Shown here: piece after piece, positions 19,145 to 23,249 of the stretch
How the letters are laid out: every line of letters begins with the position of its first letter
Position numbering within the stretch: position 1 is the stretch's first letter
NCBI GenBank assembly: GCA_965242925.1
Contig: CBDEUM010000013.1
Coordinates: 96,001 to 160,000 of the forward strand
From: Roseibacillus sp.
GTDB lineage: Bacteria; Verrucomicrobiota; Verrucomicrobiia; Verrucomicrobiales; Akkermansiaceae
Reading direction: 5' to 3'
DNA: 64,000 bases
Notes under the pieces: model-generated
The model's database searches: none
What the model was told of the DNA's origin: nothing
Seen by the model: the letters and a program-made list of their open reading frames with translations, nothing else
Translations under genes and position numbers: made by a program

Positions 19145-19588
19145 TCAGGACCCTTTGGGGAGGAATCCGCGGATTGTGAGCTCCAGCTCGCTCACCTCAG
19201 CGCCATTCGGCAGATCGAGGACATCAGTAATCTGGCAGCCATCCTTGAATGAAAGATCGTGAATCACTCCTGACTTCTTATCCTGGAAGTGGACATGGGG
19301 TGTCAGATTCACGCAGAAACGAGATGGCTCACGGTCGAAGTTTACCCGATTGATCAGCCCGTGGTCCACCAGGGCATCCAAGCAGTTGTATACCGTGGCC
19401 AGGGAGATACTGGGCATGTCTGCCTGAACCCGCCCAAAGACCTCGTTGGCAGTAGGATGGTCCCGGTTGTGGAGAAGGACACTGTAAACCTCCCGTCGCT
19501 GCTTCGTCATACGGAGCCCCTGCAGTTCGGGAGGGATCTCCTTCGCCGCAGTCGGTAGCGCTTCACCATCGTTGCCCAACATGCCCAC
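19145..19588 (-). CDS. Fur-family transcriptional regulator (PerR/Irr-like), first gene of the suf operon
   Basis: [32 protein letters not shown]; no C-terminal CxxC pairs. Confidence 0.9.
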
Positions 19589-20039: not shown

Positions 20040-20642
20040 CTAATGCCCGCGCCAGAAGAGCACAGCGCATAGCAGGGTAAGCACTCCGTAAACCAGTCCG
20101 CTGAAGGTCAGGATACGCCAGCGGTTGTCGCTGGCTGTCGCCCAGGTTGCCAGATCGCGGAAGGTGTAGGGCATCCCCACCCAGAAGAGCCCCTTGGTGA
20201 GCAGAAGATAAGAGAAGATCGGGACCAGCAGTCGCGTGGCCGGATCCTTGTTGAAGGAGGCCGCCAGCAGCGGCCCGGTCACCATCAGGGCCAGCACTCC
20301 CAGAGCGCGCACGAAAAGAAACTCCTTCACATAAAGGACCATCCCCAGGAAGGCGATGGGGACGAAGAGGCGCAGCCACGGCTTCACCGCATTGAACTCC
20401 CCGATGTCCATGCTCAGGGAAGACAGCAAACCCATGTCATCCGGGGCAATGAGAAGCCAGAACCAGGACATACCCACCCCCAGAGTGTAGATTCCGGCGG
20501 CGTGGTGACGCGGCAGCTTGATGAGCCACTCCTTACACGCCTTCGCCTTCCAGGCCATCAGGCCATGAGCTACCAGGAGGTAGGCCGCCAGGGCGTAGCC
20601 CGCAACACTGAGGGGAATACTTTCGTAGGGATGCGGACCCAT
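20040..20642 (-). CDS. hypothetical integral membrane protein
   Basis: About 6 hydrophobic segments in 200 aa; ATG start, TAA stop. Confidence 0.8.
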   Translation of the reverse strand: MGPHPYESIPLSVAGYALAAYLLVAHGLMAWKAKACKEWLIKLPRHHAAGIYTLGVGMSWFWLLIAPDDMGLLSSLSMDIGEFNAVKPWLRLFVPIAFLGMVLYVKEFLFVRALGVLALMVTGPLLAASFNKDPATRLLVPIFSYLLLTKGLFWVGMPYTFRDLATWATASDNRWRILTFSGLVYGVLTLLCAVLFWRGH

Positions 20643-20761
20643 TTTCGTGCGCGCTAGCTACGCCAGCACCGGGGGCAGGTAAAGGGCAAAGGCGGGAATT
20701 CTACCCAAACTACCACCCGGCCGGAGCCTGAAATTGGATTTTGAGGCCGGGACATGTTTCT

Positions 20762-22193
20762 CTACGGCCCCGCTGCCGCCTTCCCAAAGAGGGTAAAGCC
20801 GGTGGAATCCTCGATTTTCACCTCGAAAATCTCCCCTGTCATGCGCTCGCGGTCGCCATCGAAAATGACGATCTTGTTTTGGGTGGTGCGCCCGCTCAGG
20901 CGCTCCTTGTTGGTCTTGCTGGGACCCGAGCAGAGGATCTCCTGGCGCGTGCCGATAAGGGCCGCATTCTTGGGGACCGCGATCTCACTCTGGATACGCA
21001 GCAGTTCCTGGTTCCGCTCTTCCTTCAACCGCTCCGGGAGTTGCCCGTCCATCTCAGCCGCAGGCGTGTTCTTCCGCTTGGAGTAACGGAAGATGAAAGC
21101 TGTTGTCGAACTGCAGGCGTTTCATGCAGTCGACCGTAGCCTGGAAGTCCTCTTCCGTTTCGGTCGGGAACCCGACGATAACATCGGTGGTGATTGCCAT
21201 GTTGGAGCGCACCGCCTTCATCTTCTCGCAGATCTCGATGAATTGCTCATTCCTGTAGGGGCGCCGCATCGCCCTGAGGATGCGATCGCTCCCGCTCTGC
21301 ATGGGAAAGTGAATATGCGAACAAAGCTTGGGAAGATAAGTGAAGGCCGCCACCAGATCGTCACGATAGCCGATGGGATGAGGCGAAGTGAAACGAATGC
21401 GTTTGATCCCCTCCACCTCATGAACTGCCTCGAGAAGCTGCACGAAGGGTGACTTGCCCTCGACTTTCCCGAATTCGGTACGCCCGTAGAGGTTCACGAT
21501 CTGCCCCAGGAGAGTCACTTCCTTGGTGCCCTGCTCCGCCAACTGTCTCACCTCCTCCACCACATCCGCAATGGGGCGCCCGCGCTCCTGCCCCCTCGTG
21601 TCGGGCACGATGCAGAAGCTGCAGCGCATGTTGCATCCCTGCATGATGGACACGAAGGCCGAGGGCTTCTTCCCTGCCGCCACATGATCCCGAATGGTGT
21701 TCTGGCTCCCCTCCTCCGCACCGGTATCCACCAGCTTCCCATTCCTGGTTCCTCCGCCCGGGATCCAGATTCCCTCCTCCTCGACGGTATGCCCCTCCAG
21801 GGACATCGAGGGATCATCCATCCTCTCCTCCATCCGTTTGCGCAGGATGTCATCCACGTAGCCAAAGACCCGGTGGTACTTTTGCGTCCCCACTACCAGG
21901 TCGAGATGGGGGACGCGCTCGAAGAGTTCCTCTCCCCGGCTCTGCGCCATGCAACCCATGAAACCGTAAACCACATGGGCCCGCTTCTCACGGTGCTTAC
22001 CCATCATTCCCATCTTGCCCAGGGCCTTCTGCTCAGCCTGGTCGCGCACCGAGCAGGTGTTGACCAGGATGGCATCGGCATCCTCTTCCGCACGGGTGAG
22101 GGTATAGCCTCCCTCCACGAACATCCGAGCAACCTGCTCGGAATCACGCTCGTTCATCTGTCATCCGTAGGTCTTGACGAATACTTTGGGCAC
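20762..22193 (-). CDS. miaB: tRNA i6A37 methylthiotransferase MiaB; in-frame TGA at codon 11 (candidate Sec) and a 1-nt frameshift near 21097
   Basis: GTG-PKVFVKTYG-TGA-QMNERDSE, NTCSVR, GCMAQ, radical SAM CNMRCSFC, RFTSPHP, TTDVIVGFP. The TRAM domain (GRTTQNKIV) is in the shifted frame 20762-21052. Confidence 0.93.
22117..22160 (-). promoter_or_regulatory. putative bacterial SECIS element of miaB
   Basis: After TGA (22163-22161): ATGAAC...TCCGAGCA-GGT-TGCTCGGA-T-GTTCGT, a perfect 8-bp upper stem plus a lower stem. Confidence 0.65.
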
Positions 22194-22352
22194 AACTCTC
22201 CCCGTGCATGCTGACGACGGGGCGGAACCCTTAGCGTCTCTGCCGCAAAAGATCAACCTTCGGCTTCCCTCGGCACCGATTGAAGCCGGAGCCGCAATCC
22301 ATGGCATAAGGAGCTCTTTTTCGGCCCTCCCTCGCCCCGGGTTTCTGCTACA

Positions 22353-23249
22353 GTGGCCGTGTTGGCTCCGCAAATCGACATTTTCATCCTCTACCTCGCC
22401 ACCGAGCGTGGGCTTTCGGATGCTTACCAGCTTTCCGTGCGACGCACCCTGGAGACACTCGCCGACTGGGCCCAGAAGCAGAAATTCGCCACCTGGCAGG
22501 ATCTTGGCATCGATTCTCTCAGGGAATTCCTCGCCCAACTGAAGAAGAAGGGCCTGGAGGCCTCCTCCCTCCGCATCGCAGTGGTTCATATCAAGATCTT
22601 CTTCCGCTTCCTTGCCGGCCGCAGCCTCATCGAGGACGATCCCGCCGAGCCTCTCCTTTCCCCCAGGACTGGAAGTCACCTGCCTGAGACACTTCACGAA
22701 TCCCAGATCGTAAGACTGCTGGAATCCATCGACCCCTCCAGGGCGCTCGGTCGCCGCGACCTCGCCATTTTGGAACTCTTCTACTCCTCCGGCCTGCGCC
22801 TCGCCGAAATCTGCTCCGCCCGATTGGAGACGCTGGACCTCGAGGATGGCTTCCTCAGAGTCACCGGCAAGGGCAACAAGACCCGCATCGTTCCGGTGGG
22901 TGGGCGGGCCCGTTCCGCCCTGGAAAGCTATCTGGCCAACGAGCGCCCCAAGCTTGTCAAGCGCCACACTTCCTCCGAGATCTTCCTCTCCGTGCGCGGC
23001 GGACCACTCGGTCCCGATCGTGTCCGGAAAATTGTGAAGGAACGCGCCCACCAGGCCGGGATCAAACAGAACATCTACCCGCACCTCCTGCGCCACTCCT
23101 TCGCCACCCACCTCCTCCAGAACGGAGCCGACCTGCGGGTGATCCAGGAACTGCTCGGGCACGCCGATATTGCCACCACTCAGATTTATACCCACGTCGA
23201 CGACCAGCTCCTGAGGAAGGTTCACCGCCAATTTCATCCCCGGGCGTGA
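22353..23249 (+). CDS. xerD: chromosomal tyrosine recombinase XerD/XerC type
   Basis: RDLAILELFYSSGLRLAE, GKGNKTRIVP, HLLRHSFATHLL, LLGHADIATTQIYTHV, ends HPRA. XerD versus XerC not resolved. Confidence 0.85.
   Translation: MAVLAPQIDIFILYLATERGLSDAYQLSVRRTLETLADWAQKQKFATWQDLGIDSLREFLAQLKKKGLEASSLRIAVVHIKIFFRFLAGRSLIEDDPAEPLLSPRTGSHLPETLHESQIVRLLESIDPSRALGRRDLAILELFYSSGLRLAEICSARLETLDLEDGFLRVTGKGNKTRIVPVGGRARSALESYLANERPKLVKRHTSSEIFLSVRGGPLGPDRVRKIVKERAHQAGIKQNIYPHLLRHSFATHLLQNGADLRVIQELLGHADIATTQIYTHVDDQLLRKVHRQFHPRA

Follow-up and report, generated by a model that had tools for sequence, protein, structure and literature searches.

An in-frame TGA codon at a cluster ligand of MiaB

The window analyzed here is a 64,000-nucleotide (nt) stretch of a Roseibacillus sp. 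genome (assembly GCA_965242925.1, contig CBDEUM010000013.1, positions 96,001 to 160,000 of the forward strand) that includes a minus-strand gene for the tRNA-modifying enzyme MiaB. The gene is interrupted at codon 11 by an in-frame TGA which occupies the position of the first of three Cys ligands to the auxiliary [4Fe-4S] cluster. Comparison with orthologues makes it highly probable that the gene is a functional miaB, specifying the C2-methylthiotransferase of N6-isopentenyladenosine at tRNA position 37 (i6A37), and that codon 11 is a selenocysteine (Sec) codon. The features of the gene are as follows.

20762..22193, minus strand: miaB gene, from a GTG start at 22193 to a TAG stop at 20764-20762, read via the codon-11 TGA and an extra T
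22161..22163, minus strand: in-frame TGA, codon 11, proposed Sec codon at the position of the first auxiliary [4Fe-4S] cluster ligand
22053..22055, minus strand: codon of Cys47, second auxiliary-cluster ligand (NTCS of NTCSVR), from the sequence and the alignment with 7MJV
21951..21953, minus strand: codon of Cys81, third auxiliary-cluster ligand (GCMA of GCMAQ), from the sequence and the alignment with 7MJV
21612..21635, minus strand: radical S-adenosylmethionine (SAM) CxxxCxxC motif (CNMRCSFC; Cys187, Cys191 and Cys194), from the sequence and Pfam

The 5′ end of the gene reads GTG-CCC-AAA-GTA-TTC-GTC-AAG-ACC-TAC-GGA-TGA-CAG-ATG-AAC on the minus strand, corresponding to VPKVFVKTYG-TGA-QMNERDSE, and the first 380 codons with TGA rendered as U translate as VPKVFVKTYG-U-QMNERDSEQVARMF... 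Residues 1-380 alone score 360 bits with TIGR01574, the MiaB equivalog model (cut-off 355.3), and the piece that follows a frameshift described below (AFIFRYSKRKNTPAAEM...) adds a further 74.6 bits. Pfam assigns UPF0004 to residues 3-102, Radical_SAM to residues 181-355 and a TRAM domain to the C-terminal piece. Alignment with Bacteroides uniformis MiaB (7MJV) pairs residue 11 with Cys27, Cys47 with Cys63, and Cys81 with Cys97. The auxiliary motif has the spacing U11-X35-C47-X33-C81; CysX35-36CysX32-33Cys is the [4Fe-4S] cluster-binding motif that characterizes UPF0004 in all methylthiotransferases, according to a review (PMC5352715), and the window protein possesses this motif only if translation places Sec or Cys at the UGA. 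All three Cys residues of the radical SAM motif, C187-X3-C191-X2-C194, are present. The gene is single-copy in the genome, where the sole paralogue is 32% identical. The original prediction for this locus had recognized KTYG-TGA-QMNERDSE where methylthiotransferases have TxG-C-QMN, along with intact NTCSVR, GCMAQ and CxxxCxxC motifs; the sequence bears out both observations, with TGA at 22163-22161 and the motifs contributing Cys47, Cys81 and Cys187/191/194.

Distribution of the TGA codon among relatives

A sample of 40 relatives plus the genome of origin (G000) contained a miaB orthologue in 39 of 41 genomes. Thirty of the relatives' loci were fetched, and the 29 that were readable at codon 11 divided into 13 with TGA, seven with TGT and nine with TGC. 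Within the genus the corresponding numbers were 12, five and one (18 readable). A broader family sample yielded miaB matches at E ≤ 1e-100 in 191 of 201 genomes, and one in-frame TGA was counted by hand in 71 of the 150 orthologue rows listed (42 rows unlisted). By numbered genus, TGA-bearing genes made up 23/23 of the listed rows in g24, 17/22 in g29, 12/16 in g25, 5/8 in g28, 2/2 in g22 and 12/18 in g1. Forty family genes from five further genera were fetched by choice, 28 flagged for TGA and 12 without it, and the triplet lay at the codon of the first cluster Cys in 28/28 of those flagged.

The resulting working set of 69 orthologues comprises 41 genes with TGA and 28 with TGT or TGC at the same codon, a ratio that is not a prevalence because the fetched genes were chosen. 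The position of the TGA is conserved across seven genera, the remaining orthologues have Cys codons (TGT or TGC), and the TGA-bearing genes are otherwise open over ~445-480 codons. An alignment of relatives had been put forward in the original prediction as a check for a conserved TGA, which is thus present at the same codon in 41/69 orthologues. The names attached to the relatives and to identical proteins (Roseibacillus, Rubritalea and ‘Akkermansiaceae bacterium’) place the group among marine Verrucomicrobiales/Akkermansiaceae.

Metagenomes were scanned for TAYGGNTGACARATGAAYG, and among the matches listed (119 stretches, of which 80 loci were kept) 48 of 80 loci were of the same gene type, 31 were chance matches and one belonged to a different miaB lineage. 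The latter, a 259-nt locus (L184), reads MKKLYIKTYG-TGA-QMNVYDSARMADLL... with TGA at the first Cys codon and a different hairpin downstream; this single instance could be either a second independent Sec-containing MiaB or an error. A stricter pattern for TGA-bearing miaB was found in 0/400 other genomes of a phylum-wide sample, 369 of which were outside the family and 31 inside it, the latter mostly from one genus that lacks selA.

Translation across the UGA codon

Among the 41 TGA forms, all nine third positions of codons 2-10 vary versus three of the 18 first and second positions, and the N-terminal peptide M/VPKVFIKTYG is kept with only five single-residue variants. Conservation in the fetched loci starts at the ATG or GTG codon and not upstream of it, and the reading frame across the TGA is preserved in 41/41 TGA forms. 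Codons that vary in this coding fashion upstream of the TGA denote a translated N-terminus in the frame of the gene, which argues against a start at Met13.

Such a start is the basis of an alternative in which UGA terminates a 10-residue leader and translation restarts at the AUG of codon 13, producing a shortened MiaB without the first ligand. An ATG is situated 3 nt after the TGA and public gene calls adopt it: the Met13-start translations of eight of eight relatives have exact matches in the NCBI, JGI, ENA or Tara collections under the names MiaB or ‘MiaB/RimO family’. Nevertheless, the nine upstream codons maintain the canonical PKVFIKTYG under purifying selection in a frame that is held across the TGA in every TGA form. 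Moreover, a protein beginning at Met13 would be deprived of part of the UPF0004 core, as residues 3-12 align to the very start of the Pfam model, and of one of its three cluster ligands. Nor does restart account for the constrained GGU hairpin, for the presence of selA in 69/71 TGA-bearing genomes, or for the fact that TGA-bearing miaB was observed solely in selA-bearing genera, each of which is described below. Termination followed by restart is therefore considered very unlikely. Global reassignment of TGA also was rejected, as TGA is the terminal stop codon of miaB in three of eight relatives.

A constrained hairpin downstream of the UGA codon

The proposed decoding of UGA as Sec is accompanied by a stem-loop with the characteristics of a bacterial selenocysteine insertion sequence (SECIS).

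22124..22142, minus strand: proposed bacterial SECIS, upper stem-loop of 8 bp with a GGU loop, starting 18 nt after UGA
22117..22153, minus strand: full stem-loop, including a 7-bp lower stem in which 22153-22147 pairs with 22123-22117

The hairpin, UCCGAGCA-GGU-UGCUCGGA, has its 5′ arm at 22142-22135, its loop at 22134-22132 and its 3′ arm at 22131-22124, and folding verified the eight perfect pairs that had been noted after the TGA when the locus was first described. The 8-bp hairpin alone has a predicted stability of -11.7 kcal/mol. The 47 nt from UGA onward fold at -18.9 kcal/mol versus -10.96 ± 2.43 kcal/mol for 200 shuffled sequences (z -3.27), one of which equaled the native value. The E. 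coli fdhF SECIS exposes a loop G and U to SelB. The rules formulated for bacterial SECIS elements in a 2026 catalogue comprise an apical loop of 3-9 nt, an upper stem of 4-16 bp, a minimum free energy of ≤ -7.5 kcal/mol (Fig. 2 legend), a G in the first two loop positions, usually as G[G/U], and a spacing of 16-37 nt between UGA and loop (PMC13188914). The miaB hairpin conforms to all of these, with a GGU loop (or AGGUU closed by an A-U pair), 8 bp, a spacing of 26 nt and a stability of -11.7 kcal/mol.

Paired cells account for 93% of the upper helix and 87% of the lower helix in the alignment of the 41 TGA forms, versus 29-40% for the whole 15-pair structure in a control in which the 3′ partners were slid. 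One pair in the upper stem changes on both sides, as C-G in 18 forms, U-G in 12 and U-A in seven, and the double-sided change couples a synonymous change in a Ser codon to replacement of Arg by Gln. As shuffle controls for covariation were not decisive, synonymous-site constraint was used instead. Synonymous diversity at codons 17-22 of the TGA forms is 0.227 compared with 0.571 in the rest of the gene, a value not reached by any of 219 windows, the lowest of which is at 0.419. The equivalent values for the Cys forms are 0.468 and 0.544. Glu19 is GAG and Gln20 is CAG in 41/41 TGA forms, whereas Gln20 in the Cys forms is CAG in 16/28 and CAA in 12/28; Gln12 varies freely in both sets. Codons 19 and 20 contribute bases to the stem and the initial G of the GGU loop, and the remaining G and U derive from Val21, which is GTT in 36 of the 41 TGA forms, GTG in three and GTC in two.

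A hairpin that retains a GGT loop and at least seven of the eight pairs occurs in 40/41 TGA forms versus 7/28 Cys forms, the seven Cys forms concerned being closely related to TGA forms. Among 11 phylogenetically independent pairs, taken from a quick-method tree for which the first 90 nt after the codon were omitted, the hairpin tracks TGA in five to seven and shows the reverse in none (median sign-test p 0.016). Distant Cys-type miaB genes (L040-L050 and others) have a different hairpin at codons 16-22, CGCGAC...GUCGCG, that spans R-D-S-E-Q-V-A. The N-terminal coding region of miaB may be prone to structure even without UGA.

Selenocysteine machinery

The genome that is the source of the window encodes a tRNA-Sec with anticodon tca (59 bits) that was confirmed by ARAGORN, as well as selB (287.5 bits; cut-off 242) and selD (366.6 bits). 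The last has one in-frame TGA: at G000:C14:573853-574776 (L017) the gene reads CAG-U-ASK, which makes it the Sec-type selenophosphate synthetase of this genome. The selD TGA is followed 33 nt downstream by an 8-bp hairpin with the loop GUC whose apex, ...GCAGGUC..., resembles that of the miaB hairpin, CAGGU being common to both.

The selA gene is found in 18 of 19 genus-mates, one of which (G019) has two matches, and in 99/201 genomes of the family sample. By genus, it occurs in 18/19 genomes of g1, 1/1 of g2, 2/2 of g22, 23/23 of g24, 22/23 of g25, 9/9 of g28, 22/22 of g29, 1/1 of g31 and 1/23 of g21, and in none of g3, g5, g6, g20, g26 or others. All seven genera with TGA-bearing miaB have selA, as do g31 and the single g21 genome, both of which possess a Cys miaB. 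In the rows listed, 69/71 TGA-bearing family genomes carry selA; the exceptions are G000 itself, which is taken up below, and one genome that is 83% complete.

Decoding of UGA independently of selenium, with a suppressor or a near-cognate tRNA for Trp or Cys inserting an ordinary residue 11, would be compatible with the ease with which TGA and TGT interchange, as though Cys were acceptable at this position. Trp is unable to ligate an Fe-S (iron-sulfur) cluster. Moreover, the SECIS-type hairpin is selectively maintained only alongside TGA, tRNA-Sec is the sole tRNA with anticodon tca among the two top-scoring candidates, and miaB itself terminates with TGA in the three relatives mentioned above. 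Selenium-free read-through is thus judged highly improbable, and insertion of Sec continues to be the favored interpretation.

Authenticity of the TGA and origin of the frameshift

The region 20700-22300 was aligned with Logan contigs from four public runs (X1, X2, X4 and X15) that belong to four marine or seawater metagenome studies. Three of the runs are DNA or probable DNA and one (X15) is an RNA library; X2 and X4 represent independent assemblies. The TGA is spanned by X2 record 18, X4 record 23, X1 record 8 and X15 record 15, and contigs of all four runs have no alternative letter at 22161-22163. The coverage of the TGA region by a contig of the RNA library is not proof of transcription.

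The coding sequence is disrupted by a single additional base.

21096..21098, minus strand: T-run TTT with one extra T that produces a frameshift, from comparison with relatives and contigs

The window reads AGC-TTT-C at 21101-21095 where the nearest relative has AGC-TTC-ATC (FDNSFIFRYSKR), and the frame is lost after FDNS. Among the first 20 alignment rows listed, FDNSF or FDNAF followed by I/V-FRYSKR occurs in 17/17 relatives that reach this site. The sole contigs of X2 and X4 that cross it are one base shorter at 21095/21096, and X1 has short variant contigs one base shorter at 21095-21099. In addition, contigs of all four runs have a 1-base deletion compared to the window at 22264-22272, in the intergenic region upstream of miaB, and this second indel suggests indel errors in the assembly. 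As relatives and two independent assemblies are without the extra T, the frameshift at 21096-21098 most probably reflects a homopolymer error in the assembly, or else a minor variant, rather than a property of the gene, and it has no bearing on the TGA. A programmed +1 frameshift at 21097 was rejected on the same evidence. The 1-nt shift described near 21097 in the original prediction is therefore real in the window, but the accompanying concern about sequencing error or pseudogenization recedes with a frameshift that is private to this assembly. That the TGA and frameshift together denote a broken gene or base-calling artefacts, as two lesions in one gene of the window and the indel that sets the assembly apart from all four runs at 22264-22272 might imply, is barely tenable when the TGA is found in 4/4 runs and in 71/150 listed family orthologues that are otherwise open over ~445-480 codons, the genome contains no miaB besides this gene, and the frameshift alone is confined to the window.

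Exchange of TGA and Cys codons and genomic context

In the gene tree the TGA state is scattered through one family clade, and changes between TGA and Cys codons number at least 11 on well-supported branches and 17 on the best tree. Some of the changes lie between genes that are almost identical, on branches of length 0.016 and 0.013. Within the genus, TGT, a single substitution away from TGA, is the codon of Cys forms that are nested among TGA forms, and the hairpin is retained in these; in distant Cys forms the codon is TGC and the hairpin has disappeared. This pattern fits a Sec-containing ancestor with repeated replacement of Sec by Cys, and possibly reversions to Sec while the SECIS persists.

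Downstream of miaB, the minus strand encodes a 200-amino acid protein without a Pfam match (20040-20642) and beyond it a Fur-family regulator (19145-19588). On the other side, 22353-23249 on the plus strand encodes a divergent tyrosine recombinase with Phage_integrase and SAM-like N domains that is XerC/D-like.

A proposed Sec-ligated auxiliary cluster in MiaB

Taken together, the comparisons make it very probable that Sec occupies one of the three cluster Cys positions of MiaB in this bacterium and in dozens of species related to it. By analogy with Sec decoding in bacteria generally, the GGU stem-loop that begins 18 nt after UGA, with its apical loop at 26 nt, would recruit SelB-GTP-Sec-tRNA(Sec). 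Sec would then be placed at the UGA in the A site, at the position that the first UPF0004 Cys occupies in all other MiaB enzymes. Homology implies that Sec11 would ligate one iron of the auxiliary cluster, and the product would be a MiaB auxiliary [4Fe-4S] cluster held by one selenium and two sulfur ligands. The Sec-ligated auxiliary cluster in a tRNA-modifying radical SAM enzyme that was envisaged in the original prediction is thus supported, at the level of sequence, by conservation of the TGA, coding constraint, the hairpin and the Sec machinery. Neither of the observations named there as contrary to this proposal, TGC or TGT in all relatives or reads without TGA, applies: the TGA is present in relatives and in the contigs of all four runs.

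Several points weigh against this interpretation. Insertion of Sec, probable as it appears, is a prediction from sequence comparisons. The evidence from the public runs consists of assembled Logan contigs and not of raw reads, and X1 is possibly the source sample. The window copy of miaB is frameshifted and would be broken if the frameshift were real. In the relative G197, miaB (L071) has a TAA after ~237 codons in addition to the TGA at the Sec position; the copy is either damaged or misassembled. The frequent flips between TGA and Cys codons could be read as weak constraint on residue 11. The hairpin is retained in 7/28 Cys forms and alone is therefore no proof of decoding. Rfam recognized no family in the hairpin at E ≤ 10, and gave two chance matches elsewhere in 21900-22400. 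Compensatory changes in the hairpin, which had been proposed initially as a check, are evident at one upper-stem pair, but covariation is weak overall: two of 15 pairs change on both sides, one of them in the upper stem, and shuffled data match the covariation score in 21/500 cases and the percentage paired in 34/500. The case for the hairpin consequently rests mainly on conservation. Finally, selA was not found in the genome of origin with TIGR00474 or PF03841. Incompleteness of the assembly (89.9% complete) is the likely explanation, as selA is present in 18/19 genus-mates and in 69/71 TGA-bearing genomes.

Structural work on B. uniformis MiaB reportedly indicates that the auxiliary cluster supplies the methylthio sulfur. 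Candidate roles for selenium in the cluster of the proposed Sec-containing enzyme include effects on redox potential, oxygen tolerance, or rebuilding after sulfur donation. A more elaborate scheme, in which the selenolate alters the redox potential, sulfur release and rebuilding of a sacrificial cluster, 2-methylthio-i6A37 on UNN-reading tRNAs tracks selenium, and switching between TGA and TGT reflects local selenium adaptation, is speculative and rather doubtful. The original prediction had also suggested, tentatively, a tie between 2-methylthio-i6A formation and selenium supply. In E. coli, tRNA-Sec carries i6A37 (PMC5699536). The predicted Sec-containing MiaB would require tRNA-Sec, and the i6A37 of tRNA-Sec is the type of substrate on which MiaB acts, such that the two could form a regulatory loop from selenium status to decoding.

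Annotation, novelty and comparison with known systems

Public records start TGA-bearing miaB at Met13 or later, with loss of the N-terminus and one cluster ligand, and the annotation merits correction. The RefSeq MiaB proteins of two cultured Rubritalea begin at the Met13 equivalent (450 amino acids) or later (441 amino acids). The latter record (P0052) commences MFTEGG..., at the equivalent of Met24, and constitutes a second form of mis-annotation. A Cys-type Roseibacillus MiaB record starts MPKVFIKTYGCQMN.

MiaB and other methylthiotransferases are absent from Table 1 of a 2026 catalogue that covers 119 families and subfamilies of prokaryotic selenoproteins, and its text contains none of the terms MiaB, methylthiotransferase, TIGR01574, TIGR00089 and PF00919; its radical SAM entries are TIGR04167 and TrsS (PMC13188914). 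MiaB likewise is absent from the passages covered of a 2022 review (PMC9312934). A full-text literature search gave no report of a Sec-containing MiaB or methylthiotransferase as judged by titles and the starts of abstracts, with the supplements of large screens, which could hold an unnamed prediction, outside its scope. Matches for MiaB or methylthiotransferase together with selenoprotein concerned i6A in tRNA-Sec or unrelated topics, as far as the listings disclose. If the interpretation is correct, MiaB would constitute a new selenoprotein family, with no Sec-containing precedent known among either tRNA-modification enzymes or methylthiotransferases. It also would offer a natural selenium-ligated Fe-S cluster in an enzyme whose auxiliary cluster is a debated source of sulfur. 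The closely related Sec and Cys forms allow direct comparison, and cultured species of Rubritalea and Roseibacillus belong to the family, which makes the proposal testable.

Like Cys-type MiaB (TIGR01574; B. uniformis 7MJV-7MJZ), the window protein comprises UPF0004, radical SAM and TRAM domains and scores above the equivalog cut-off, with the same CxxxCxxC motif and equally spaced second and third auxiliary Cys residues. Unlike the Cys-type genes, the first ligand is specified by UGA accompanied by a SECIS-type hairpin in place of TGY. The window protein also differs from 7MJV in a lineage-specific insert between UPF0004 and the radical SAM domain (approximately residues 108-166, unaligned). 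The gene resembles bacterial selenoprotein genes such as selD and fdhA in possessing an in-frame UGA where homologues have Cys, a downstream stem-loop within the open reading frame, and Sec machinery in the genome. However, Sec in MiaB would be a ligand of an Fe-S cluster and not a redox-active residue of the UxxC or CxxU kind. A radical SAM enzyme with Sec has parallels in TIGR04167 (rSAM_SeCys) and TrsS (NF045646), Sec in the window MiaB being predicted. These families are distinct from MiaB: the Sec position in TIGR04167 is catalogued as GxxU, and neither TIGR04167 nor NF045646 is among the 22 NCBIfam families that match the window protein at E ≤ 0.001. In HesB-like protein, HdrA, VhuD/FrhD and the 2Fe-2S-binding CopZ-family, Sec replaces Cys at a cluster or metal site. 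These proteins appear as selenoproteins in the 2026 catalogue (PMC13188914) and are Fe-S-related like MiaB, but they have unrelated folds and involve neither tRNA modification nor a sacrificial cluster that donates sulfur.

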